Under the pieces are notes generated by a model, which was given only the letters and a program-made list of their open reading frames with translations, was not told the DNA's origin and ran no database searches. Shown here in pieces: positions 5,221 to 18,416 of a stretch of DNA of 64,000 nt. Every line of letters begins with the position of its first letter. Within the stretch, counting starts at the first letter, position 1. A program made the position numbers and the translations under genes. Source of the stretch: a phage; assembly GCA_026066175.1 (NCBI GenBank), contig GCA_026066175.1_4721.2; one strand, written 5' to 3'.

Positions 5221-5736
5221 TTACCCCATGTAACGTTTTTGGCCGAGGATGAAGACTTTGTTGAATACCACTGAAGTGATTCCTGATGCGTTACAGCTCA
5301 CCTGCCCGACACGAATTGCTGTTGATGTATCGACCCCAGCACTACTCTGCCAACTCCAATCAATCGATCCGTCTTTCTGACGAATGAAAAGATAACCGGT
5401 TTTGTTCGCCCAGTCAGAAGTAAGATTTTTGATATCTAGCGTTCCTTTCGCCAGAATATAGTCGGTACCCGCAATCATGACAGGTATTTCAGGATACGAG
5501 ATGGTTGTGCCACTGGTGGTAACACCGCTGATGCGATCGGTACGGGTATCGGTGCAGTCACCAAAGTAAGCAACGGGTAATACCCCTTTGGGAAGCTTTT
5601 GGGCGATTCTTGCATCGACGGCGTTTTTGTCGGGTGCGTCAAGCTGGGCAGCGGTAACCTGATTCGGGTTATCCTTTCTTGCGTACCACGCTGTCATGCG
5701 AGCACCCAGTTCACTCATTTTTGTGCCCATTTTCAC
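5221..5736 (-). CDS. small fibre-module protein (fibre-associated, function unknown)
   Basis: 171-aa ORF; N-terminus MSELGARMTAWYARKDNPNQVTAAQLD shares the fibre N-terminal motif; SD aggatg upstream. Confidence 0.5.
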   Translation of the reverse strand: MKMGTKMSELGARMTAWYARKDNPNQVTAAQLDAPDKNAVDARIAQKLPKGVLPVAYFGDCTDTRTDRISGVTTSGTTISYPEIPVMIAGTDYILAKGTLDIKNLTSDWANKTGYLFIRQKDGSIDWSWQSSAGVDTSTAIRVGQVSCNASGITSVVFNKVFILGQKRYMG

Positions 5737-5740
5737 ATCC

Positions 5741-5782
5741 TATCGAAAAATAAAAAGAAGGAAGGGTGGGTAGAACCCACCC
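5741..5782 (-). terminator. intrinsic terminator downstream of fibre gene 5788..7941
   Basis: Hairpin gggtggg-tagaa-cccaccc (5764-5782) followed on the minus strand by a T-rich tract (plus strand aaaaataaaaagaaggaa, 5745-5763), starting 5 nt after the stop codon. Confidence 0.65.
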
Positions 5783-5787
5783 ATCCG

Positions 5788-7941
5788 TTATAGCGTTTCG
5801 AAGTCTTTTGCCTTGATGACCGACTGGAAGTTCGCCAGGAATTCTTTCAACAACGCTTGGAATACCGTGCGGAACGCTGTATTCTTCTGCAGACTGGTTA
5901 GATAATCGTTAGCGAGATAATCGCTAAGCTTACCGATCTTCTGCATCTTCTGACCGTCGTCGTTCTCTCCGGGTTCTTGGCTGTTAACGTTAGCCCATTT
6001 GATCCCTTCGAGATCGCCATCGGCAAGGAAGTTAGCCGGGGTTTCATCATCGTTCAGGATCTTAATCGTATCGCTGGATTCGATGCCACCGTAAGCTTCC
6101 AGAAGCTGGTTAACCGTCAAGGTATTCGTGTTGATGGAACCATTAGCACCATCGATGCCGATACCCGTACCGGTAATCGTGGTTGCAGAAAGATCAATCG
6201 GACCGGTTAACTTACCACCGCTGATGGGTAACGCACCGACCTGCGCAGCCGTGTGGGTGTGGTTAGCCAATGCCGCAAATGCCGCAATAGACTTGTACGT
6301 CGAATACGGCGTCATGTACGCGGTCTGGTTGGTGTTATCAGCAGCTTGAACGTCGGTTGCAACGCTGAAGTTCTGAACATTCCCTAAACCAACCTGATCC
6401 TTCGTGACTTCGTGTGGGTTCGTTTTATCGACAACGTGTGCTGCAAAACCATCCCCAGCCAAAGCGATAATCGCCGCTTTCGTTGCTGCCGGTGTCATGT
6501 AACGATCTGCCGCTGTACCAGCTTGCGCTTCAGCATCCGATGCAACAGGATAGTTACCAACATTCCCTAATCCGACTTGAGTTTTAGTAACCTCGTGCGG
6601 GTTGTTGGTGTTGGCAATGTGACTGCTGAAACCTTGACCCGCCATTTGTTCGATAGCATAACGAACCAACAGTGGTGTCATGTACTTGTTCGTGACCTGA
6701 CCGTCGATAGCTTCCTGAGTGGTTGCGATACCGAAGTTTTGAACGCTTCCTAATCCCACTTGGGTCTTGGTGACGTTATGCGGGTTGTTGGTATCAGCCA
6801 GGTGTTGTGTTACTGTCGGGGTAATCAATGCAGCAATAGCATCCGCCACCAATGCAGGTGTTACGTATTTGTTCGTTGCCGTACCGGCTTTCGCTTCCGC
6901 GCTCGTTGCGATACCGTAGTTTTGGACTGAACCCAATCCTACCTGTGCCTTCGTAACACCGTGAGGGTTACTCTTGTTTTCGGTATGCGAGGTTAACGAG
7001 GTGTTGAGTGCATCAATACGCGCGCTTAAGCCATCGGTGATTGCTTTGATTGCTGCTTTCACCCCTGCTGGGGTTGTGTACAGGTTGGTTGCTGTTCCGG
7101 TAACAGTTGTAGTGCTGTCAGCAACACCATAGTTCTCAACACTCCCCAACCCTACCTGGGCTTTTGTTACCTTGTGTGGGTTGTTAAGGTTACTGATGTG
7201 TGCAGCAGCGCTATCACCGCTCAGGTTAGCGATCATTTTACGGGTCATCGCTAACGTCATGTACAGGTTTTCACCGATGCCGTCAAGATCGCTTTCGGTA
7301 GCCAGACGGTAGTTTAATACGTTTCCTAGCCCCACCTGCTCTTTCGTCACCCCATGGGGATTGTCACGACGTTTCTCGTGTTGCAGCAATGCGGTCATTG
7401 CTTTATTGAACCCTTCTTCCAGGGGTTCTCTCAATGATTCAATTGCAGCAACCACGTCATCCCACGTCATTGTGTCGGTTTCGACATTATGTTGGTGGTT
7501 GATTGGCGGGAATACGGAAGGAACGTCGGCAACCTTTTCCCAGAACGTCACACGGGGATCGTAAAGGTTGTTGGCTAGAACGTTAAGAATTTGTTGTTGA
7601 TCAAGTGTAAACTCACCCCCCAGTGAATAGTAGTTCAGTTGCAACTGTCCACTGAATGCGGTATCCAACAGCATGATGGAACCGTATAATTCCAGGCCGG
7701 TCAGCGCAGCCATGGCACGGAAGGGGTGAGTGCATAAAAAGTCAACGCCTTCTTCCAGATACGCGTTTGTCTCCGGGTTGTAGATCTTTAACCCATTACG
7801 AAAATATGGCGCGTATTTAGGAACGAGAAAGTTAAATCCGGTCCCCGTGGAAGGACGGACAGTGACGAGTTCTTCTGGAACCCATGCGCCATCCAAATTC
7901 CCCTGCGGGTTATACGGAAGGCGTTTAATTTCATCTGTCAT
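5788..7941 (-). CDS. tail fibre protein with tandem fibre repeats
   Basis: 717-aa ORF; at least six copies of the NPHxVTKxQVGLGxVxN(Y/F)...AGTAxxxYxTP repeat. Its N-terminal ~170-aa domain is related to that of 62..2107, and it has a distinct C-terminal domain (HTHTAAQVGALPISGG...). SD-like aaaggg upstream. Confidence 0.75.
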   Translation of the reverse strand: MTDEIKRLPYNPQGNLDGAWVPEELVTVRPSTGTGFNFLVPKYAPYFRNGLKIYNPETNAYLEEGVDFLCTHPFRAMAALTGLELYGSIMLLDTAFSGQLQLNYYSLGGEFTLDQQQILNVLANNLYDPRVTFWEKVADVPSVFPPINHQHNVETDTMTWDDVVAAIESLREPLEEGFNKAMTALLQHEKRRDNPHGVTKEQVGLGNVLNYRLATESDLDGIGENLYMTLAMTRKMIANLSGDSAAAHISNLNNPHKVTKAQVGLGSVENYGVADSTTTVTGTATNLYTTPAGVKAAIKAITDGLSARIDALNTSLTSHTENKSNPHGVTKAQVGLGSVQNYGIATSAEAKAGTATNKYVTPALVADAIAALITPTVTQHLADTNNPHNVTKTQVGLGSVQNFGIATTQEAIDGQVTNKYMTPLLVRYAIEQMAGQGFSSHIANTNNPHEVTKTQVGLGNVGNYPVASDAEAQAGTAADRYMTPAATKAAIIALAGDGFAAHVVDKTNPHEVTKDQVGLGNVQNFSVATDVQAADNTNQTAYMTPYSTYKSIAAFAALANHTHTAAQVGALPISGGKLTGPIDLSATTITGTGIGIDGANGSINTNTLTVNQLLEAYGGIESSDTIKILNDDETPANFLADGDLEGIKWANVNSQEPGENDDGQKMQKIGKLSDYLANDYLTSLQKNTAFRTVFQALLKEFLANFQSVIKAKDFETL
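6339..7389 (-). repeat. in-frame coding tandem repeats inside the fibre gene
   Basis: Repeated ~45-60-aa units are visible in the translation of 5788..7941. Confidence 0.6.
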
Positions 7942-7973
7942 GATGCGCCCTTTACAAGTTGTTAGTAAGTGTG

Positions 7974-7991
7974 GGATACCCTGGGGTATCC
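7974..7991. promoter_or_regulatory. 18-bp near-perfect palindrome GGATACCC-TG-GGGTATCC in a divergent intergenic region
   Basis: 8-bp arms that are exact reverse complements, separated by 2 nt, located between the divergent starts at 7941 (minus) and 8046 (plus). Candidate operator or bidirectional regulatory hairpin. Confidence 0.4.
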
Positions 7992-8045
7992 TGTGTTAAC
8001 AGCGGTAAAATATTACTGTAACTATAAAATAAGGGGGCCTCTCCC

Positions 8046-9323
8046 ATGTATACATTGGTAAAAACTTACGGATTACCCGTAGGTTCCGGCACGGCCTGGA
8101 CAGCACTTGAAGCGGGTGAAAGCGTCCTGAGCACGTTGTTCGCAACGTATCAAAAACTCAAGATCCAGGTCCATGAAAGCTATACTGACCAGCAACAGGT
8201 TATCGATCTTTATACGTTTCAATCCGAGCTTCAAAACAGCAGCGATACGCTTAATGCTTGGCTGAAAGCGAAGTCGGATGCCCACACCAACCTTCGTGGT
8301 CAACCGGGTGAACTCTCGATTAAAGCCCACAAGCTTTATTGTCACGACGTTATCACGGTAGGCTTTCTTCCTAAAGTCGGTAATAGCGGCTATCATCCAA
8401 GCAACGCGATTCCTGAATCGGAACGTACCGATATTCTCCTAACAAAAGCAAACACGAATTACGAGAACATCGGCAAGCACTGCTTGTTCACGGTAGGGGG
8501 TTACGTACACCCTCACGTTTACGGTAAGGATGTTGGTGTCTATATCCAAGGCGGATTCAAGACAGCCCAACGCAGCCAGGAAAACGATATCGGGATGATC
8601 GATTTCAGCCGTATCGGAAGTTTGGAGATTCATGCGATCACAGAAGACATGATTGCGGATTCCACGAAGCTTTTACCGTACAAAGATGAGATGTATTTAC
8701 GCTTACCCCGTAAAGTTGCGGAAGATGAAACGGTTGCATTGGTGTTCGGAGGCTACTTACATCTCCTCGACGACTGTTACACGATCGTTAGCGATACGAC
8801 AGCAAAAATAAACTGCATCAACATGTTCTTGTACGAAAGGTATTTTCGTTCCCGTGAGTATCTTGACTTAACCTCCCTCGGTATTCTCTTGGACGAAGAA
8901 AACCCACAATCGGATATTGTTGCGAACCGTTTGCTGTCCGATAAAGCCTTGAAAGCCTGGGTGACCCATCCTTGCAGCTTTTGGGTTTATATCAAAGCAA
9001 CCTCGATTCAAGTTACGCAAGAACCGTTACCGCGCAGTGGCGTACCAGGACAGTATTTCTTAGGTAAGAAACCGGAAGGATTAATTCGCGCGGATCTTGG
9101 AGAACTGCCCGCGTACGTACAGACTTACGAGAAACCATTATGGGTACTTCATTCACGATGGGGACTTCGTAAGAACATGCTGTTTGAAAACACGTTATAC
9201 AAACACACACGTGTTAAACGCCTCAATGATACACCGTATCTCCATCAGGTGTGGTTGGAAACGCATGCGACGTTACAAACCGTACACAAGCTGGAACTGA
9301 TCGATTCCAGTCAGAAAAAATAA
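8046..9323 (+). CDS. hypothetical protein
   Basis: 425-aa ORF on the plus strand; SD aaggggg 5-6 nt before ATG; tataaaat box about 20 nt upstream; ends 16 nt before hairpin element copy 1. Confidence 0.7.
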   Translation: MYTLVKTYGLPVGSGTAWTALEAGESVLSTLFATYQKLKIQVHESYTDQQQVIDLYTFQSELQNSSDTLNAWLKAKSDAHTNLRGQPGELSIKAHKLYCHDVITVGFLPKVGNSGYHPSNAIPESERTDILLTKANTNYENIGKHCLFTVGGYVHPHVYGKDVGVYIQGGFKTAQRSQENDIGMIDFSRIGSLEIHAITEDMIADSTKLLPYKDEMYLRLPRKVAEDETVALVFGGYLHLLDDCYTIVSDTTAKINCINMFLYERYFRSREYLDLTSLGILLDEENPQSDIVANRLLSDKALKAWVTHPCSFWVYIKATSIQVTQEPLPRSGVPGQYFLGKKPEGLIRADLGELPAYVQTYEKPLWVLHSRWGLRKNMLFENTLYKHTRVKRLNDTPYLHQVWLETHATLQTVHKLELIDSSQKK

Positions 9324-9338
9324 ACAAGACAAACATAA

Positions 9339-9370
9339 CCCTCCTCCAACCCGTAAGGGAAGGAGGAGGG
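9339..9370. terminator. conserved GNRA-capped hairpin element, copy 1 (bidirectional terminator candidate)
   Basis: ccctcctcc-aa-ccc-gtaa-ggg-aa-ggaggaggg with cataa/catatg flanks, between convergent genes (stops at 9323 and 9380). Confidence 0.6.
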
Positions 9371-9379
9371 CATATGCCG

Positions 9380-10285
9380 TCAGGCTACGTATAACGTTAG
9401 ATAACCTTCAATGAGGGTGTTCATTACACTGAGTTGGAGAACGACAGCTTTACTAACATCCGTACGCACCCCGAACGGTAGCGTTTTGAAGTGCTCTGGA
9501 TCCGTAATAACTTTCGCGTTTTGTAGGTTAAGCGATCCTGGTATCGCTGACAATACCCAACGATCGTTAACCGTCAGACCAACGATCTCTTCAGAAAGTC
9601 CTAACTTCAGAGTGTTCATTTCTGCAATCAGGGCTTCTGAATGCGCATCGCCCGATGTTAACGTGTAACCATCGGTTAACGCCGTCAACACCGCATCCGA
9701 TACGAACCAGTTGTACGATACGATTGCACCTGGTAGTTTATCGCTATCCCGGTCGATGATGTAGTTAAGACCCGCCAACATGTTGTTGCGGATGAGGTTG
9801 TTCAGGTCGTTATGACCTGACGTCAACTCAACAAGCAATTGACCGATCCAGACTTGGTTACCGGGTTTCGGTGTTATTACAACCTGTATCGGCTGTTTGG
9901 ATTTGTCCAGATCAGCATCAACGATTTCGGTTTTATTCAGCAGGATGCCGTACGTTGAGGCTAAGACAGGCAATACCTCAGAAACCTTGGTCAGTGTATC
10001 TAAGGTTTCGATTTCTATCGGCCAACGATGTTGCCCACCAGACCAAATACCAAGTTTGCTAAGATCGATACGGTTGTAATAGATGTCGACGGAGTTCACG
10101 AGCCCGGAACCCGGTTGTGGGTGCACGGTTAACATACTGTTGCGTTTGTATCCCGTGCTTTCAGAAGCCTCACCGATAACCAGCTTATCCAGCGTCACAC
10201 CTCGAGCGTCGAAATCGCTATGTTTTCGAATCAGTCGGAAGAGAATCTCCTTTGATTCTAGCCCCAGGATTTCACTGTACTCCAT
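9380..10285 (-). CDS. hypothetical virion-associated protein, paralogue family A
   Basis: 301-aa ORF; shares the LPVLASTYGILL.../...VWIGQL region with 11202..12053 and 12064..12999; SD aagggg upstream. Confidence 0.65.
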   Translation of the reverse strand: MEYSEILGLESKEILFRLIRKHSDFDARGVTLDKLVIGEASESTGYKRNSMLTVHPQPGSGLVNSVDIYYNRIDLSKLGIWSGGQHRWPIEIETLDTLTKVSEVLPVLASTYGILLNKTEIVDADLDKSKQPIQVVITPKPGNQVWIGQLLVELTSGHNDLNNLIRNNMLAGLNYIIDRDSDKLPGAIVSYNWFVSDAVLTALTDGYTLTSGDAHSEALIAEMNTLKLGLSEEIVGLTVNDRWVLSAIPGSLNLQNAKVITDPEHFKTLPFGVRTDVSKAVVLQLSVMNTLIEGYLTLYVA

Positions 10286-10300
10286 TTAACACCCCTTAGG

Positions 10301-11185
10301 TTACGGTAGGATTTCTGCACCGGTTGGACCTGCCTTACGGGCTTCCAACGCACCAAGGTCGTATTTCAACGTTAATGTATCGTTGGTGGTGTAGAGGTTG
10401 TGATACGTTGAAATCAGGTCGGTAACTTGAGCTCCTACGATTTCGTTCATATCGAAGTTGGAACCCAGACCATCATCGGTGCGGACGATTTTATCGCCTG
10501 CGGAAACCATCCCAATCTCAGAGATAACGGCGTACTCCTCACCACCCTCGGTGAGTTTAGCCACATTGAGGTATTCGTTAATGTCCCACGGTGTCCAAAC
10601 CAGAGATACCTTGCAGCTGTAATCGTAATACTCACCTGTCGCCACTAAAATTCCGGTGGTCGGAATATCCGGCCGAGGCGGGTTGAGGTTCGCATCGGTG
10701 GGATGCCATTCGATGGTCTGAGCAACGCCATCAACGTATTTGGTATAACGCATGGAGCGGACAACGTTATCGAAATCGATGCGTCGACCGTAATAACAGA
10801 TATACTTTTTACCGCTTTCCAGTGTCTCAATACGACGTAACCCAAATTTAGCACGTTCGTCCGTGGTTAAATCGTTACCCACTTCACGCATTACAAACGG
10901 CTTGATCTTCCATGGTGAAAGATCGCTTGCTTCATGGGCGATCGGCATCGAGGAAGGGATACCGTTAGCGTTACGGATGAATTCATGACCCAGGTTACCG
11001 ATACAGAAGTAACGGACGGCAGGATTACCTTCAGGGTAGATCTTCGCTTGGATCTGAAGTTTTTCGTTCAGGGTGCTATGTTCTTCCCATACATGAGGAA
11101 GCCCCAACGTCAGGTTGGTTTGTACTTGACCACCGATAATCGTACGAACGATACGATCGGTAGCACGGATTTGTGTAGAAGCCAT
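10301..11185 (-). CDS. hypothetical protein
   Basis: 294-aa ORF with SD aggaaaag; no obvious similarity to its flanking paralogues. Confidence 0.65.
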   Translation of the reverse strand: MASTQIRATDRIVRTIIGGQVQTNLTLGLPHVWEEHSTLNEKLQIQAKIYPEGNPAVRYFCIGNLGHEFIRNANGIPSSMPIAHEASDLSPWKIKPFVMREVGNDLTTDERAKFGLRRIETLESGKKYICYYGRRIDFDNVVRSMRYTKYVDGVAQTIEWHPTDANLNPPRPDIPTTGILVATGEYYDYSCKVSLVWTPWDINEYLNVAKLTEGGEEYAVISEIGMVSAGDKIVRTDDGLGSNFDMNEIVGAQVTDLISTYHNLYTTNDTLTLKYDLGALEARKAGPTGAEILP

Positions 11186-11201
11186 GTCTTTTCCTATTTA
11201 A

Positions 11202-12053
11202 TCAGTTATATTGCATCAACAGGATACCGCCGTAGTTCGTGCAGTAATCTTGACTTAGTGTAACGATAACCGCATTAGCGAATGCTGGGTTAACCGGATA
11301 GCCCTGGGCGATAAGGTCGGTTGTTTTACCGGTTGCAAGCACGGTTGCCCCATACAGGTTGTTTTCGTCCTCACGACCGTTATAAACCCAAGGGGTTGGT
11401 GCAACGTTGTTGAATAAACTCACCAGTGCGCTTAAGTTACCACCAACCTTTAATCCAGCAAGATCAGAACGGATGGCTGTACAATCAATAGCGTAACTGT
11501 AAACCAATGCCTGGATACGGTTGGCTGTGTAGTACGGGAAATTGAGGCCGGTCATTACCGTGGTCCTCATCATCCCCGCAATATCGCGTGCGCTATCGAG
11601 GAGATAAAATTTAACACTCCCCGTCCAGGCTAATCCGGTTGTTTTCAATTCTACGACATGAGGGAACGGATATTCATCACCTCGAACAATCGGAGAATCA
11701 ACGCAGCTTTCCTGATCGATAACGATTCCGTAGGTTGATTGGATCAGCGGGATAAGATCGTGCGTGGTTTTAACCCCAGCATCGATTGCAAGCTTCGGCT
11801 CCATTCCCAAGAAGAAATCCTGGATTGGAATACGATCGTACCATACGTAGCTGCTTTCACGGTACTGCGCTGGTGTCACGGTTGCCGAAGGCGATACTTT
11901 AGCGCGGGTATTTCGATTATACGCGTGGTTTCCGTTTTCAGCAACATCCGTGATATCAAGTGCATCGAAGTTAAAGTCGAAGTCAGGATTGGCTACCTGA
12001 ATAAGTTCGGCGACCAGTACTTTAGGACTTTTGTTTAACAATTTCTGACTCAT
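11202..12053 (-). CDS. hypothetical virion-associated protein, paralogue family A
   Basis: 283-aa ORF; LIPLIQSTYGIVID...LAWTGSV...YCTNYGG motifs shared with the 12064..12999 product; SD aagga. Confidence 0.65.
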   Translation of the reverse strand: MSQKLLNKSPKVLVAELIQVANPDFDFNFDALDITDVAENGNHAYNRNTRAKVSPSATVTPAQYRESSYVWYDRIPIQDFFLGMEPKLAIDAGVKTTHDLIPLIQSTYGIVIDQESCVDSPIVRGDEYPFPHVVELKTTGLAWTGSVKFYLLDSARDIAGMMRTTVMTGLNFPYYTANRIQALVYSYAIDCTAIRSDLAGLKVGGNLSALVSLFNNVAPTPWVYNGREDENNLYGATVLATGKTTDLIAQGYPVNPAFANAVIVTLSQDYCTNYGGILLMQYN

Positions 12054-12063
12054 TGTTTATTCC

Positions 12064-12999
12064 TTAGCCTTGTTCTTTCGGGGAACGGCCCTGAAGGCTT
12101 GCGGTATGCCCGTCGACATTATAATAGAAAATCAACGGACCGCCAACAGCAGTACAGTAGTTTTCATCCAGACTGATTTCGATGCCGTATTGGTAACCTG
12201 CGCGAGCCGGGATACGTTCGCCTAACTCACCGTTGAAATCCACCTTCGCGTTATACAGGTTGTATGGCGCTGTGTTATCGGTTAATACCCAACGATCGGT
12301 GGTCATTTCAGCCAGAAGGTCAGCAACCATCACATCGCTAACAACGGTACCTGTTACCAGCGAAGCCAAAAGCTCACCGTACTCAGACGTATCGCGACTG
12401 TAACTGTAGATTTCACCGCTTGCACGTACACCCTGTCCAAAGAACTTAAGACCGTCCAGCTCTTTGATCGCGATGATATCATCAAGATTCGGTACACGCG
12501 ATTTCATCAGGATACGAACGCTCCCCGTCCAAGCCAGGCAACTAGATACGACGCGAAGCAACTGTCCGTTAACGGTATCCCAGTTAAGTTCATCGTTGAC
12601 GATTTCTTCAGCTGTAAGGCCAAGACCGAAACGTTCCTTGATGATAGGCCAGATATCACGCATCTTGGTGGCGTCTGGCGCATCAATAAGAATAGGCGCT
12701 ACGTTACGCAGATACGCGCCGATATTAATACGATCGTAATACAGCGTCGTCGAACCTTCATAATCGTCTAACTCAGTAAGCTTAGCGGTTGCCGTTGCCG
12801 TAATCTGGGTGTCGCGCTCGTAGGCGCTTTGGTTAGTGGTTGGTGTTCCTAAAACCAATAATTCAGGTGTCAGGACGTGTTCTCCGTTCTGAGGTGGGTT
12901 ATCGTGGTTGATAAGACCGTACACGAGATCGGATGAAGGTAAAGAGACGTCAACCGGGTAAAGTTCGGTGCCGTCAGTAGTTGTTACCGTATCACTCAC
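12064..12999 (-). CDS. hypothetical virion-associated protein, paralogue family A
   Basis: 311-aa ORF, apparently GTG-initiated with a strong SD (gaggagg 6 nt upstream); LAWTGSV and YCTAVGG motifs shared with 11202..12053. Confidence 0.6.
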   Translation of the reverse strand: MSDTVTTTDGTELYPVDVSLPSSDLVYGLINHDNPPQNGEHVLTPELLVLGTPTTNQSAYERDTQITATATAKLTELDDYEGSTTLYYDRINIGAYLRNVAPILIDAPDATKMRDIWPIIKERFGLGLTAEEIVNDELNWDTVNGQLLRVVSSCLAWTGSVRILMKSRVPNLDDIIAIKELDGLKFFGQGVRASGEIYSYSRDTSEYGELLASLVTGTVVSDVMVADLLAEMTTDRWVLTDNTAPYNLYNAKVDFNGELGERIPARAGYQYGIEISLDENYCTAVGGPLIFYYNVDGHTASLQGRSPKEQG

Positions 13000-13058
13000 G
13001 GTGGCCTCCTCGCCAGAAATTAGTTAAAAAAGAGTTTGCGATATGCTGCGCTATCACG

Positions 13059-15470
13059 TTAAGCATCCTCGGTAGGTAATGGTTTCACAATCAAACGATT
13101 GAGCGGATTCGATAGGCGCATACTGATAGGCTTATACGCAGCATGATTCGTTTCGCTCAATACAGCGGATCGGAAGCGACCTTCAACACGTTTATAGATT
13201 GGGTTTATCCAAAGACCCTGAAGACCCGGTTGACGGAAACGTTGTTCGATAGGTTTAATCGGTTTCACGGTCAAACCACGTACCGCTTCTGACGGTATAC
13301 GTTCGCTGATGTCGCGAGGTGCTCGACCTGGGAATGGAGCCAACCAGAGACCATCCAGCGGGTTCTTACGGAAACGCAACGAGATAGGATCGCTGATAAC
13401 CTGCGCCCAGTACTGCGTGCTGAACCGTACCGTCTGGGTATTCTCGTATCCGCTGCAATCGCACCAGGTGGGTTTCGGCGGGGCTTCTAAGCTCTCAACC
13501 GCGGATTCACGCCAGTTCGTCATTGGGTTGTTATCATGGACGAATTTGATAACTTCCGTAGCTTGGTTATCCGTATCGTGAACGTTTGCTTGTGCCCAGT
13601 CCTCCCACAGTTCTTCACTGCCGCTTACCAAACTTGAACCGAGCCGAACGGCAATTTTGTTCAGTGGTTTGATCGGATCGCTGTTGATTGTCTGGATAAA
13701 ATGGATGGTGTAACTGCTCAGTGTTTTAAGCAGTTGTAGCATCCCGTATTGAATATCCTTAAGACTGGTAACGTCTTCCAAGTCTTGACCGGTGGCCTTC
13801 GTGAAGATATCGAGAGCCAGAATCCCCGCTTCTTCTTGACTGATTGCGTCAAGCTCCCAATCCATCGCTAAGAACCATTCCTTGTAAAGCTGTCCAATAC
13901 CGAAATCAACCCCAACGTCCATGTAGAAGTTTTCAACGATAGCCTCAGCCATACCTCGAGCCTGGTAATGCTCCTGAAGCTGATACATGAACTGATGACG
14001 ACGCCATCCCTGATAGATTTCTGTAACGATGTTAAGAAATTCCTCAGTACTGACAATAGGACGTAATGTCACCTGTTTATCTAAACACCACCAGATCAGT
14101 TTGTCAGGAATGATAACCGGATCGGTAATGCTACGAAGATGCTCGAATGTCGGTAACGTTAAAACGCGGACGTGGTTAGCATGGATCTTAGGTACTTCAA
14201 TGAGCGTCATACCCATCGAATAGTTCAGCAAATACAAGAATAGCTTGTAGGCATCTTTCATCGACATGGTCATGGTATCACCCGTCACCGGGTTGGTGGT
14301 GGTTAACCGTGACTGATACATGCCGATGGAACTCAGATGGATCCATTCGTTGAGCAAGAAATCGTATTTCGGGTATAACTCACTGTCGGTAAGATCTTCC
14401 GCTTCACTTTCCAATACCTTGGTTGTTAAGGTATTATTGTCATGCATCGACATCTTCTCTATTGTGCGGTTAAGCTCGGTATAATACTCCGCTTCGTTAT
14501 CCCGCGCTAGAGGGAACTGTTGTTGCATTACGGTGGTGACCTTACGACGTACCGTCCCGTTACCAACGATCTCTTGAAGGTTAAGCGGTTTACGTTCCAT
14601 GTAAACAGTGGGTTTTAACGTCTGAGGTATTTCGGAAGCGTCTTGTTTGATCGAGAACGCACCGATTGGAATACCACGATCGGTGAGTACCTTCTGAATA
14701 AGCTTATCGTAGTTTTCCGTTCTACCCATGTTCCTTTCGACGTAAGCGATGTTACGATAAAACCAGAGCATTTGGGATTCTGTCATGTATCGCTTGAAAC
14801 GATCAAGGCCTTGATGGCTTGCCAGATAGCTCCAGATATGGAAGCTATGGGCATAATGGGTATGACAGTTTTCCCAACGAATACCTTTTATCATCTCAGG
14901 TATTTGTGTGAATAGAATAGCATATAACGCAGGCCAATGAAGCATATCGACGCTTTCATACGCGGGATGTTCCCAGCGCCGGAAGTAGTCGTCGATTTCT
15001 TGCTGTAATCGTGGAATAAGGTTGGCTTCGCGTGATTCAACCTCGCGGGTATCGTACCAGAGAATCTCGTGATTGCGTGCAGCAAGGGCTTTCTCGATAT
15101 CGATGGGGTTAAGGATACCCAGGATTAACATACGTTGTTCTGGGTACCGTGCAATTAGACGATTGAAATAATCTCCGCCGTACGCGTATTCCCTTGCGGT
15201 CATGCGGTGCCGTAGCATGTTTTCCTTGGTGAACTCGATCTCTTCGAGCGTATCCAGGGAATTGACGGTCATCATTGTCTGACAAGGATGATACTCGCCA
15301 GCGAGATTCATGTAGTATAACCACGTGCGTGGGTCGTCCCCGACGGCCATCTGGTAGACTTCGGAAACCTTGAGGTTTAACCGTTCTGCCGTGATGTCGC
15401 TTTTAATAATCAGGGTGTCCGTTAGACGCTGCACGCTTTCCGAATAAAGCTGATAGTCAGTGTTGGACAC
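13059..15470 (-). CDS. large hypothetical protein with C-terminal RFR/GLW short repeats (start uncertain)
   Basis: Long ORF; the track start at 15539 is a TTG with no SD, whereas the in-frame GTG at 15470 is preceded by ggagga (6-nt spacer); the first in-frame ATG is at 15350. C-terminus has repeats SLRFRKNPLDGLWLAP / EQRFRQPGLQGLWINP / EGRFRSAVL. Confidence 0.55.
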   Translation of the reverse strand: MSNTDYQLYSESVQRLTDTLIIKSDITAERLNLKVSEVYQMAVGDDPRTWLYYMNLAGEYHPCQTMMTVNSLDTLEEIEFTKENMLRHRMTAREYAYGGDYFNRLIARYPEQRMLILGILNPIDIEKALAARNHEILWYDTREVESREANLIPRLQQEIDDYFRRWEHPAYESVDMLHWPALYAILFTQIPEMIKGIRWENCHTHYAHSFHIWSYLASHQGLDRFKRYMTESQMLWFYRNIAYVERNMGRTENYDKLIQKVLTDRGIPIGAFSIKQDASEIPQTLKPTVYMERKPLNLQEIVGNGTVRRKVTTVMQQQFPLARDNEAEYYTELNRTIEKMSMHDNNTLTTKVLESEAEDLTDSELYPKYDFLLNEWIHLSSIGMYQSRLTTTNPVTGDTMTMSMKDAYKLFLYLLNYSMGMTLIEVPKIHANHVRVLTLPTFEHLRSITDPVIIPDKLIWWCLDKQVTLRPIVSTEEFLNIVTEIYQGWRRHQFMYQLQEHYQARGMAEAIVENFYMDVGVDFGIGQLYKEWFLAMDWELDAISQEEAGILALDIFTKATGQDLEDVTSLKDIQYGMLQLLKTLSSYTIHFIQTINSDPIKPLNKIAVRLGSSLVSGSEELWEDWAQANVHDTDNQATEVIKFVHDNNPMTNWRESAVESLEAPPKPTWCDCSGYENTQTVRFSTQYWAQVISDPISLRFRKNPLDGLWLAPFPGRAPRDISERIPSEAVRGLTVKPIKPIEQRFRQPGLQGLWINPIYKRVEGRFRSAVLSETNHAAYKPISMRLSNPLNRLIVKPLPTEDA

Positions 15471-15497: not shown

Positions 15498-18416
15498 ATG
15501 AACGATATAAATAAAGGGCGCGTCGCCCTCGAACGTCAAATGAGCAATAATGACGTTGCGAAGGCACTCATGAACAAATTTGTCGCTCCTGCTCCGCAGT
15601 CACGTCTTTATAACACACGTGAAGCGGAAGGAGCGAGCGGTCGTTTCGGGTTAGTTGTTCCCGACCAGATGACGATGAACACGGTGACGCGTGCGACCGC
15701 AACAAACGTCGAGGATAATAAAAACATCCTCGAGTTGTTCCCTGAACTTAAACGCGTGATGCAGATCTATGTTGCCGCGTTGACGAACCCTAACGATCTT
15801 AAGACGGTCGAGATGTTCATCGACAGCGAAGATTTCCCCGGCAGAGTCGCAGAAATCGTTCAGCCGATGATCGATACCATCGACACGCATTTTAAGAATA
15901 TCTATAAAATAAAGACGCTTATCCCTCGTATCATCGAAGATGTCTTCTTTATCAAGGGCAGCTATAACTTCGTTGTTCTGCCTGAAAGCACGCTCGATCG
16001 TGCTATTAACGGCAACGGCCAACTGAAACTCGAAGAATACGGATTTAAAAACAATCATTTCGCCAGCTGGGGGCTGCTGGGGAATGACAGCCGTATACGC
16101 AGTCAACATCAGTTACCGACAACGGTTTCGATGGAAGATTATTTTTCAGGCGTTAACGAAACCATCCCGTACGATCCGGTTGTCCGTATCGATAGCATCA
16201 AGTTTACCAACACGATGCTCCGTGATAAAGACGGTAAATTCATTGAAGCGAAGGTCGATATTCCGGATATGGTTACGGTTGTTGATAACCCAGACATCCT
16301 TCGCATGCCGATTTTACACCAACGTCGTGCGTCAACAGCCGTGCAACGTGCATTACGTGCAAACACCTTAGGCGGTAACGGCCTGGTGACGTTATCAGGC
16401 GATCCGACGCAAACCGCGAATCGACGTGAGCTGACACAAGAGCAAGTTAATGAGATCTGGAATAAACTAAACATCCAACGTCATACCAAGGTATCGCCTG
16501 TGTACGCACTAGCAACCCCGGATACCCTTGACCGTCAAAGCGTTGGTCATCCTGGCGTAATGCATGTACCACCTGAGTCATTAGAACCGGTTCATGCGCC
16601 TGGCGATCCAGAGAACCATATCGGTTATCTCGTCCAGCTGGATGAATTCGGTTACCCAGTACGTTTGGTTGAAGATGCTGCGTATTACAAACAGCTGGAA
16701 GGTCGACTGTCGAAGATCACGGCGGATATTGCCGGTACATCAAGCAACGGAATGGCGAGTGAGATGATCGGGGCAGCGAAGAACATGGTTCAAGGTACGT
16801 CGTGTAACCAAGTCGATATGTCAGCGTTTGTCTCGTCGTACGAATCACTGATGCAACGTTATATCGTTGAACGTATCGTTAACGGTTACCTCGGCAGTGC
16901 GGTAGAAATCGGTGCAACGTCGTCGTTCTATCTGTCGATGCTTGCCCGCAGTCTTGCTCACAAGCAAACCCGTGTTTTGTTTATTCCTCGTGAGATGGTG
17001 ACATACATCGCCTACGAATACAACAAATACGGGATTGGACGTTCCTTGCTTGAAAGTACGAAGATGATCTCATCGCAACGCGCGATGCTCATGGTTCAGG
17101 AACTGATGGCGAAAATCAAAAGTTCGTTGAACTATACGACGCTGAGCGTGATGCTCGAAGACACCGATAGAAACCCGGTTGATACCGTTGAGCAGGCATT
17201 GCACAGTTTTGCTCGTGTTTATCAATCTGGTTTCCCGTTGGGTGAAACCAACCCAATGGATATCATCAATGCATACGAACGAAGCTCGATTCGATTGAAG
17301 GTTGAAGGGAACAACCCACGCTTCCCGAAACTGAACACCGACGTTAGCGTTGAACAACGTAACTACCAATCCCCGGATGATGAGCTGATGGATCGTTACC
17401 GTCGTGATCATTTCATGGGTCTGGGTGTTTCTCCAGAGATCGTTGATACGTCCTACCAATCTGAATTCGCGGCGTCGGTGATTACGGCTAACGCGATGCA
17501 AGAGAAACAGTTCACGGTTTGTCGTGAGGTCGTCACGAATGGCTTAACTGATCACATCAAGAAGTATACGGCTTATAGTCCTGTGCTTCTGACGTCGTTA
17601 CGCAATACCGTTCGCGCGAATATGTCAAAGCTCTCTCAAGCGCAGCTGCAACAGCTCTTTGGTAGCGACTTCGAAAACGGTGTTATTCGTAACGTGAACG
17701 CGTATCAGGAGATTGATGATCGATCGGTGACAATGGATCTGGATTACACCAAACCGGAAGTCCAGGAAGTGATTGCTGACGCTTATGTCTCCATGTTCTT
17801 AAACAGCTTGCAGGTACGTTTACCGGATAGCAACGCGCGTCGCCTTGAAGATCAGGTACGTGAATATAATCAGTACAAGGAAGCGATTACAGCACAACTT
17901 GATGATTATTTAACACCGGATTATGTCATGGGTCTGGGTGGGGTCGATGAAACAACCCTGCAGATGATTCGAGCGTGCATCATTGGTACGGCGATGAGGA
18001 CATGGGCGAAAGAAAACAACTTCAATCAGGAGCTGGCCGATCTCTTTAGTCTCGACGATAAGAAGAATGCCGTCCAGGATTGGAAACGTGCATCCATGGA
18101 GCATATTGAAATCATGGGTAAATGCATGGGTGATTTCGCACTCTATATCCAAAACCTGACGAAGCAAATCGAAGAGAAGATGGGCGACCAAGCACAAGAC
18201 GGTAGCGTTTCATCTGACGGCTCATGGTCATCGGATTCCGGTTCGGATAGCGGTTCTTCCGATGATTTCGGTGGTGGTGATGACTTTGGTGGCGACGACG
18301 ATTTCGGAATGGAAGAAACCGAAGAATCCACCGAGGAAACCACTACGGAAGAAACAACCGATGAAACTGGTGATAATGCCGCATCAGAAGACGATACCGC
18401 AGGTGATATTGTCTAA
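15498..18416 (+). CDS. large hypothetical virion protein with acidic DDFGG-repeat C-terminal tail (portal-like size; function unverified)
   Basis: 972-aa ORF; SD aaggag 9 nt before ATG; C-terminus SSDDFGGGDDFGGDDDFGMEETEESTEETTTEETTDE... is low-complexity and acidic. Confidence 0.6.
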   Translation: MNDINKGRVALERQMSNNDVAKALMNKFVAPAPQSRLYNTREAEGASGRFGLVVPDQMTMNTVTRATATNVEDNKNILELFPELKRVMQIYVAALTNPNDLKTVEMFIDSEDFPGRVAEIVQPMIDTIDTHFKNIYKIKTLIPRIIEDVFFIKGSYNFVVLPESTLDRAINGNGQLKLEEYGFKNNHFASWGLLGNDSRIRSQHQLPTTVSMEDYFSGVNETIPYDPVVRIDSIKFTNTMLRDKDGKFIEAKVDIPDMVTVVDNPDILRMPILHQRRASTAVQRALRANTLGGNGLVTLSGDPTQTANRRELTQEQVNEIWNKLNIQRHTKVSPVYALATPDTLDRQSVGHPGVMHVPPESLEPVHAPGDPENHIGYLVQLDEFGYPVRLVEDAAYYKQLEGRLSKITADIAGTSSNGMASEMIGAAKNMVQGTSCNQVDMSAFVSSYESLMQRYIVERIVNGYLGSAVEIGATSSFYLSMLARSLAHKQTRVLFIPREMVTYIAYEYNKYGIGRSLLESTKMISSQRAMLMVQELMAKIKSSLNYTTLSVMLEDTDRNPVDTVEQALHSFARVYQSGFPLGETNPMDIINAYERSSIRLKVEGNNPRFPKLNTDVSVEQRNYQSPDDELMDRYRRDHFMGLGVSPEIVDTSYQSEFAASVITANAMQEKQFTVCREVVTNGLTDHIKKYTAYSPVLLTSLRNTVRANMSKLSQAQLQQLFGSDFENGVIRNVNAYQEIDDRSVTMDLDYTKPEVQEVIADAYVSMFLNSLQVRLPDSNARRLEDQVREYNQYKEAITAQLDDYLTPDYVMGLGGVDETTLQMIRACIIGTAMRTWAKENNFNQELADLFSLDDKKNAVQDWKRASMEHIEIMGKCMGDFALYIQNLTKQIEEKMGDQAQDGSVSSDGSWSSDSGSDSGSSDDFGGGDDFGGDDDFGMEETEESTEETTTEETTDETGDNAASEDDTAGDIV

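Follow-up and report, generated by a model that had tools for sequence, protein, structure and literature searches.

A stretch of 64,000 nucleotides from a phage contig (the window) carries three similar genes with an unrelated gene between them, which raised two questions: whether a tandem array of paralogues had been split by a foreign gene, and what the encoded proteins do. The four open reading frames were present at the predicted coordinates, all on the minus strand, and were analysed together with their neighbours (Table 1).

Table 1. Features of the locus in the window
Feature	Position	Strand	Length	Remarks
gp30-type neighbour, convergent	8046..9323	+	425 aa	Orthologue of Goslar gp30 / phiKZ gp130
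Intrinsic terminator	9318..9381	-		Hairpin 9328-9381, then U-rich run; closes the putative operon
DUF7941 paralogue, post-spoke	9380..10285	-	301 aa	Orthologue of Goslar gp31
Baseplate spoke gene	10301..11185	-	294 aa	DUF7208; orthologue of Goslar gp32 / phiKZ gp139
DUF7941 paralogue, position 2	11202..12053	-	283 aa	Orthologue of Goslar gp33
DUF7941 paralogue, position 1	12064..12999	-	311 aa	Orthologue of Goslar gp34
Baseplate upper-wedge gene	13059..15470	-	803 aa	Orthologue of Goslar gp35 / phiKZ gp128; first gene of the putative operon
Portal gene, divergent from the wedge operon	15498..18416	+	972 aa	Goslar gp36 / phiKZ gp129

The source of the window is a Goslar-like member of the Chimalliviridae (within the genus Goslarvirus or close to it). 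The gene order was identical to that of Goslar from gp29 to gp36, as were gene lengths, start codons and the terminator. Nucleotide identity to Goslar was 88% over positions 9000–13100 at 100% coverage, and 87.6% over 9.9 kb. The proteins shared 92–97% amino acid identity per gene at dN/dS values of 0.03–0.05 (11202..12053 versus gp33: 96.8%, 0.03), indicating strong purifying selection, and the synonymous divergence differed three-fold along the locus. The phage is a strain or species-level relative distinct from Goslar, and a 243.8-kb contig of a Shigella sonnei assembly was closer to it than Goslar (96.4%). The genes themselves are already known, having been annotated, classified and detected in virions in the close relative Goslar (2026), where gp31, gp33 and gp34 (listed as DUF7941) and gp32 (modelled as spoke) lie at NC_048170.1 27787–31406 (Goslar preprint).

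The outer three genes are genuine paralogues that arose by duplication. Pairwise alignments of their products, proposed as a check on the shared similarity, were significant (BLASTP E 2e-10 to 3e-21), and all three matched Pfam PF25613 (DUF7941) over their full length (residues ~4–299 of each protein) with 188, 160 and 213 bits, the middle score belonging to 11202..12053, against a gathering score of 27 bits. They also matched PHROG 1037 with E values of 3e-31 to 4e-59, the latter for 11202..12053. Of the motifs that the original prediction had assigned to all three, YCTxxGG was absent from 9380..10285, the most divergent of the trio. The predicted GTG start of 12064..12999 was confirmed, with a strong Shine-Dalgarno (SD) sequence (GAGGAGG) at 13005–13011. 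Neither a three-sequence HMM nor an iterated HMM built from ~26 copies of the window and the compared loci detected further DUF7941 members in the 64-kb window. A tblastn search with one paralogue returned 115 records, yet missed most Pseudomonas members.

AlphaFold2 (AF2) models showed two confident domains around a segment with pLDDT <50 (residues 169–188 in the 12064–12999 product, 158–191 in the 9380–10285 product), and the 11202–12053 product aligned end to end with the other paralogues. The three proteins are thus predicted to share one design of an N-terminal globular domain (NTD), a flexible linker and then a globular C-terminal domain (CTD). An internal duplication relating NTD and CTD was rejected (hhalign 1.2%). 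Sequence search of the PDB with phmmer yielded a weak match of 11202..12053 to phiKZ gp127 (9xqd_0, E 0.0018) and no match for 12064..12999 or 9380..10285. As this search was nearly empty, the proteins were approached through structure prediction and a fold search, which matched the NTD fold of the modelled paralogues to the experimentally built NTD of gp127 in the phiKZ peripheral baseplate. The 'disordered' linker matched the folded domains in conservation (1.36 versus 1.18 and 1.40 bits per column), which indirectly supports the proposed head-to-tail oligomerisation of the paralogues.

The middle gene, as had been claimed, is unrelated to its flanks in sequence, profile and fold. A cryptic DUF7208–DUF7941 homology was rejected (hhalign 0.2%, no structural match). 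Its product matched Pfam PF23838 (DUF7208) with 316 bits (gathering score 27) and, in the PDB, Goslar chain 11lx_Aa (likewise present in 11pb and 36za; E 1e-196, ~97% identity) and phiKZ gp139 (9xpg_A, E 4e-42). The spoke role of this family is known from cryo-EM (Goslar preprint; PMC13250141). An exact-sequence look-up of the spoke protein of the window found no identical entry on record. The 'gp139' of a transposon-essentiality preprint follows the numbering of phage PCH45 and has no bearing on this locus.

The neighbouring genes point to the baseplate and portal. The 13059..15470 product matched Goslar chains 11lx_Bh and 36za_sR as well as phiKZ gp128 (9xqs_C, E 2e-110; phmmer), a family with a wedge role in the cryo-EM maps (Goslar preprint; PMC13250141). 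Its start codon was adopted from the Goslar annotation and then checked in the sequence: GTG at 15470, with the SD sequence GGAGGA, at a distance of 27 nt from the ATG of the divergent portal gene. The 15498..18416 product matched 11ed_J ('Portal Protein gp36', E 0) and phiKZ gp129 (9xpe_M). The 8046..9323 product matched phiKZ gp130 (9xqd_L, E 3e-26), a connector and fibre-attachment protein of the peripheral baseplate (PMC13250141).

Spacers among the spoke and DUF7941 genes were 10–16 nt long, and 59 nt followed the wedge gene; an SD sequence preceded every start. Between the convergent gp31-type and gp30-type genes, the terminator folded with a dG of −35.4 kcal/mol (z = −7.6; none of 200 shuffles folded equally well), and the Goslar annotation has a terminator at the equivalent place. 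RNA folding found no significant structure in the 59-nt spacer between the wedge gene and the gp34 orthologue. A sigma-70 promoter scan gave 6 sites where 12 were expected and was thus uninformative; the late genes of these phages are transcribed by the phages' own RNA polymerases. Judging from spacing and terminator, wedge, DUF7941, DUF7941, spoke, DUF7941 and terminator probably form a co-transcribed, five-gene late structural operon.

The structures of relatives suggest what this operon may build. In phiKZ and Goslar, five homodimers of the spoke protein are joined end to end and extend outward from the wedge protein (Goslar preprint; PMC13250141). The phiKZ gp139 band begins at gp128, the wedge protein, and 'terminates at gp127', with its end on the N-terminal domain of this DUF7941 protein (PMC13250141). 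We consider it probable (roughly 75%) that this region forms the distal portion of a Goslar-like wedge–spoke–DUF7941 operon linking inner to peripheral baseplate, and that the three paralogues are specialised peripheral subunits. The locus would then encode the inner-to-peripheral link itself, with the paralogues as low- to medium-copy DUF7941 components; the suggested baseplate placement of the gp31/33/34-type proteins is based on phiKZ gp127. In purified Goslar virions, LC-MS/MS indicated about 8 gp31, 112 gp33 and 27 gp34 copies (preprint Table S4), and no density for a DUF7941 protein was resolved in the baseplate map (Goslar preprint). Reciprocal searches paired gp127 with Goslar gp22 rather than with any of the three window-type genes.

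The paralogues probably join head to tail, a protomer's linker and CTD docking onto the NTD of the protomer that follows. AlphaFold3 (AF3) predicted head-to-tail DUF7941 oligomers and an interaction network among all DUF7941 pairs (Goslar preprint). Such joining would anchor or extend DUF7941 filaments, which are suggested to make up a host-finding cloud on jumbo phages that form a nucleus. The abundant Goslar filament proteins gp22 and gp23, encoded ~11 kb away and beyond the extent of the window, share the NTD–linker(–CTD) design with the paralogues, but reach ~580 and ~2140 copies per virion, compared with ~8–112 for the Goslar orthologues of the window genes. Purified gp22 forms filaments in negative stain and is the sole DUF7941 member with experimental filament evidence (Goslar preprint).

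A less likely but serious alternative is that the paralogues occupy one defined site each in the unmodelled peripheral baseplate ('star lobe') as static blocks of fixed stoichiometry, and that only gp22/gp23-type members form filaments. This would fit phiKZ gp127, built as a static component at one copy in each star lobe (PMC13250141), the large parts of the peripheral baseplate left unassigned in both the Goslar and phiKZ maps (Goslar preprint), and the copy numbers of gp31 and gp34, which are near multiples of six and far below those of gp22 and gp23. However, the copy number of gp33 is high for one fixed site, all three proteins retain the conserved linker and CTD, for which head-to-tail docking is predicted by AF3, and the predicted network spans all DUF7941 pairs. 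The two readings overlap, since an anchor would itself occupy a fixed site.

More speculatively, the paralogues might constitute an ordered, stoichiometrically graded adaptor chain by which, from the six spoke tips, a gp22/gp23 'filament cloud' of micron scale is nucleated and branched, an idea we regard as doubtful. Copies per virion in Goslar would be read as roughly 6–12, ~24–30 and ~110, with each paralogue's linker and CTD specifically recognising the NTD of the member that follows, and with no redundancy among the paralogues. If so, the conserved linkage with the wedge and spoke genes would mirror an assembly pathway, in a logic similar to that of flagellar hook–filament junction proteins.

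As to the origin of the arrangement, the original prediction of duplication followed by insertion or replacement held for the duplication, which is ancient, but not for the insertion. A later insertion of an unrelated gene into a contiguous three-paralogue array, or a gene replacement there, is very unlikely, even though the middle gene is truly unrelated and the four genes are alike in size and orientation. The spoke gene was a single-copy core gene, found at one place per record in 254 phage records. In 12 of the 15 chimallivirus genomes surveyed (this window included) it lay downstream of the wedge gene, directly adjacent in four; the 12 also include four with no DUF7941 gene nearby. The number of DUF7941 copies around it varied from none to two before and none to one after. 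The constant part of the locus is the wedge-then-spoke backbone, and the DUF7941 copies are variable. Base composition was uniform across the locus, and purifying selection on the spoke gene equalled that on its neighbours.

Synteny with Agricanvirus also spoke against insertion. Erwinia phages Ea35-70 and RAY (genes 008, 009, 010 and 011) have the same order of wedge, DUF7941, DUF7941, spoke, DUF7941, and RAY gp8, gp9 and gp11 are listed as DUF7941 (Goslar preprint). The Ea35-70 copies at positions 1 and 2 were orthologous to 12064–12999 (131 bits) and 11202–12053 (80 bits), as mutual best or near-best hits. Since Ea35-70 belongs to another genus and its spoke protein is only ~37% identical, both the duplications and the 'interruption' are ancient. 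The post-spoke copy of Ea35-70 and RAY is not orthologous to 9380–10285, being nearer to Goslar gp22 and the position-1 copy of Klebsiella phage KpLz-2_45, and the gp30-family gene lies several genes away. Among the compared genomes, 9380–10285 had no clear orthologue outside Goslar-like phages, and it grouped with the pre-spoke subfamily. If anything moved, the sequence comparisons suggest a DUF7941 copy rather than the spoke gene. Neighbour-joining (NJ) trees gave good support only for position 1 (98–100% bootstrap for the pairing with Ea35-70), whereas deeper branches, and the direction in which gene order changed, were poorly resolved. Genomes of the phiKZ type (DUF7941 proteins gp126, gp127 and gp143; spoke gp139; PDB 9xqd/9xpg) retain the order wedge, gp127, gp126, but have the spoke gene beyond the portal and fibre genes and the short gp143 ~1.8 kb downstream of it.

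The spoke is thus a functional partner rather than an intruder, being the structure capped by a DUF7941 protein in the phiKZ virion. It is the conserved core gene of the locus and a physical partner of the DUF7941 family, copies of which were probably gained, truncated, moved and lost around it as the chimalliviruses evolved. What looks like a foreign gene inside a paralogue array can turn out to be a conserved one whose product physically partners the paralogues. A role of the paralogues in the head or packaging, with portal adjacency reflecting a capsid function, is hardly credible: PHROG 1037 is categorised as 'head and packaging' and the portal gene adjoins the operon, but the sole experimentally located member, gp127, sits in the outer peripheral baseplate of phiKZ (PMC13250141), the operon neighbours encode wedge and spoke proteins, and DUF7941 proteins are absent from the Goslar and phiKZ capsid models. 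The conserved linkage of DUF7941, wedge and spoke genes, absent from the discussion of the Goslar preprint, provides independent genomic support for the proposed attachment at the peripheral baseplate. The synteny also indicates lineage-specific DUF7941 copies, which may relate to host range. The family is large, with 2,027 clusters at 50% identity, many of them fused to long C-terminal extensions.

The ORF listing recovered the four minus-strand genes of the original prediction with identical boundaries (table below). The strong Shine–Dalgarno sequence (SD) claimed for the member with the GTG start was read directly from the sequence (GAGGAGG, 5-nt spacer, GTG at 12999). In pairwise BLASTP, the products of the three outer genes were significantly similar to one another (E = 2e-10, 1e-10 and 3e-21; 23–25% identity), with near full-length alignments in two of the three pairs, whereas the best E-value of the middle product against them was 14. 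All three outer proteins matched Pfam DUF7941 (PF25613) end to end (188, 160 and 213 bits; cut-off 27 bits), as well as PHROG 1037. The outer genes are thus paralogues, and the proposed duplication stands. The motifs it was read from sit in aligned columns, except that YCTxxGG is absent from the 9380–10285 member. The middle protein matched Pfam DUF7208 (PF23838; 316 bits). Neither an HMM built from the paralogues nor its iterated version detected further DUF7941 members in the 64-kb window.

Features of the locus and their sources
Feature	Coordinates	Strand	Source
phiKZ gp130 homologue	8046–9323	+	PDB sequence search
ORF, 301 aa	9380–10285	−	ORF listing
ORF, 294 aa	10301–11185	−	ORF listing
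ORF, 283 aa	11202–12053	−	ORF listing
ORF, 311 aa, GTG start	12064–12999	−	ORF listing
Goslar gp35 / phiKZ gp128 homologue (wedge)	13059–15470	−	PDB sequence search
Portal, Goslar gp36 / phiKZ gp129	15498–18416	+	PDB sequence search

At 100% coverage, the region shared 88% nucleotide identity with Goslar, a nucleus-forming Escherichia jumbo phage in the Chimalliviridae. The gene order was that of Goslar gp29–gp36, and the four genes were orthologues of gp31, gp32, gp33 and gp34 (91.7–96.9% amino acid identity). Their dN/dS values against Goslar (0.03–0.05) equalled the portal and wedge values, meaning that no copy among them is decaying. In the PDB sequence search, the middle product was approximately 97% identical to a Goslar chain found in 11lx, 11pb and 36za; it was also a homologue of phiKZ gp139 (E = 4e-42).

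The structural context is described for the orthologues in phiKZ and Goslar. In phiKZ, gp128 is the wedge protein of the baseplate, and five gp139 dimers make up an unbroken band running from gp128 across the outer peripheral baseplate. The band “terminates at gp127”, where a DUF7941 N-terminal domain (NTD) caps it; gp130 joins the star lobes and bears fibre attachment sites (2026 phiKZ structural atlas, PMC13250141). In Goslar, gp32 is the spoke, made of five end-to-end homodimers plus gp220, the first dimer adjoining the wedge protein gp35 (2026 preprint, 10.64898/2026.04.21.720040). Outward polymerization of the spoke from the wedge is established for the orthologues (PMC13250141; 10.64898/2026.04.21.720040). 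The ten Goslar DUF7941 proteins that the preprint names include the virion proteins gp31, gp33 and gp34, for which it estimates approximately 8, 112 and 27 copies per virion, respectively; its estimate for gp32 is approximately 179 (Table S4 therein). It describes the DUF7941 module as an NTD, a linker that is disordered and a C-terminal domain (CTD), with head-to-tail oligomers predicted by AF3 and filaments of purified gp22 seen by negative stain. DUF7941 density was not resolved in the Goslar map; the proteins were proposed to form a “fiber cloud” on the peripheral baseplate (10.64898/2026.04.21.720040).

An AF2 model of the 12064–12999 product, made with available homologues (mean pLDDT 77.6), had confident domains at residues 8–168 and 189–296 and a low-confidence linker (169–188). 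Foldseek gave it a single significant PDB match (E = 5.4e-6, probability 1.0, TM 0.68 on target): the N-domain of phiKZ gp127, from the outer peripheral baseplate entry 9xqd. Since spoke chains were absent from these fold matches and comparing the DUF7941 and spoke profiles gave 0.2% probability, the middle gene is unrelated to the paralogues at every level tested (sequence, profile and fold). The “disordered” linker was as conserved as the domains among 25 family members (1.36 bits per column; NTD 1.18, CTD 1.40), a pattern that suits docking better than passive tethering.

The second half of the original prediction, insertion of this unrelated gene into the array or replacement by it, was not supported by synteny. 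Across 254 phage records, each genome had a single spoke protein. Spoke neighbourhoods were taken from 15 genomes that cover the range of divergence, annotated with purpose-built iterated HMMs and read downstream of the wedge gene (W, wedge; D, DUF7941; S, spoke). The order was W-D-D-S-D in this window, Goslar and Ea35-70 (Agricanvirus); W-D-Dshort-S-D in KpLz-2_45 and Kodama; W-D-S-Dshort in PhiEaH1; W-Dshort-S in SPN3US, Wellington and EarlPhillipIV; and W-S, directly adjacent, in FLC4-3B, RSL2, Yong XC32 and Aphrodite1. LucasX had Dshort-S, with the wedge gene elsewhere. In SL2 (phiKZ-type) and PhiPA3, S had moved to the far side of the portal and fibre genes, and a short D of the phiKZ gp143 type lay approximately 1.8 kb downstream of it; in SL2, the one of the two whose wedge locus was retrieved, that locus was W-D(gp127)-Dshort(gp126). 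From these orders, the wedge/spoke pair is the constant part, usually divergent from the portal, and the DUF7941 set the variable part.

Orthology was assigned from a bootstrapped neighbour-joining tree and an all-against-all BLASTP matrix. The copies next to the wedge gene in the window and Ea35-70 were reciprocal best hits (131 bits; 98–100% bootstrap), and the second copies paired at 80 bits, so Ea35-70 shares position-specific orthologues as well as gene order. For the post-spoke copy (9380–10285), which grouped with the pre-spoke subfamily, a clear orthologue was seen in Goslar-like phages only. Reciprocal best hits also linked phiKZ-type gp127 to Goslar gp22, and SPN3US gp83, the short copy between wedge and spoke, to Goslar gp23. 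Judged by tree and BLASTP orthology, the duplications are older than the splits between genera; a DUF7941 copy, rather than the spoke, would be the gene to have moved, if one did.

We hypothesize that the three DUF7941 proteins would locate to the peripheral baseplate and join other DUF7941 proteins head to tail. The very unequal copy numbers may mean that they differ in role, anchoring the abundant gp22/gp23 filaments or acting as adaptors for them. The leading alternative, plausible though less favoured, is that the paralogues are purely static baseplate bricks; it overlaps with this anchor idea. The system is already known from the 2026 Goslar and phiKZ work, and the additions are modest: a conserved genomic link between DUF7941 genes and the wedge/spoke pair, and position-specific orthology.

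The four genes are separated by 10–16 nt, each with its own SD, and a 59-nt spacer without significant RNA structure follows the wedge gene. A strong hairpin after the last gene (9328–9381; dG −35.4 kcal/mol, z −7.6) and the U-rich run trailing it lie where a terminator is annotated in Goslar. Based on spacing, SDs and terminator, we infer that the five genes are co-transcribed. The hairpin sits between the convergent ends of the gp30 (9323, +) and gp31 (9380, −) homologues; bidirectional termination is doubtful because the U-rich run exists on the minus-strand transcript only. GTG 15470, with GGAGGA as its SD, is the start codon of the wedge gene. As only 27 nt separate it from the portal ATG (15498), the promoters and 5' leaders of both must overlap neighbouring coding sequence. 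Twelve of the 15 chimalliviruses in the survey kept this divergent pair.

When 1.84 billion cluster representatives were searched exhaustively with a profile, 2,027 DUF7941 members were recovered at E ≤ 1e-3 (743 at E ≤ 1e-10). Among the best-scoring 150 of the 2,027, full-length proteins (approximately 270–300 aa) were the majority, alongside NTD-only forms (approximately 170–200 aa), tandem-NTD proteins and N-terminal modules to which extensions as long as 1,970 aa are fused. By tblastn, many enterobacterial chimalliviruses carried several copies per genome. SPN3US-like phages (SPN3US NC_027402.1, ~117.9–118.8 kb, and similar phages), which have a lone short NTD-only gene between wedge and spoke, had a second array of 4–5 full-length copies, detected by tblastn, approximately 35 kb away.

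Along window positions 8046–12999, dS against Goslar varied approximately 3-fold, falling from ~1.2 (gp30 and gp31 homologues) through 0.71 (spoke) and 0.51 (gp33 homologue) to 0.39 (gp34 homologue). Together with the gp31 homologue having the lowest amino acid identity (91.7%), this gradient suggests that a recombination boundary lies close to where the spoke gene meets the gp31 homologue. A single 243,814-bp contig (ABEBTY010000001.1) in Shigella sonnei assembly GCA_021016215.1 was 96.4% identical to window 5701–14285, much nearer than Goslar (87.6%), with the same gene order. A related protein named as a Salmonella Corvallis protein lay on a 234,967-bp contig. Bacterial isolate assemblies evidently contain Goslar-like jumbo phage genomes. 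The Goslar gp29 homologue (5788–7941, minus strand; 717 aa) was tail-fibre-like and YomR-like; its six repeats of approximately 60 aa, each with the motif NPH.VTK.QVGLG.V.N[YF], account for its matches to many PHROG tail-fibre families.
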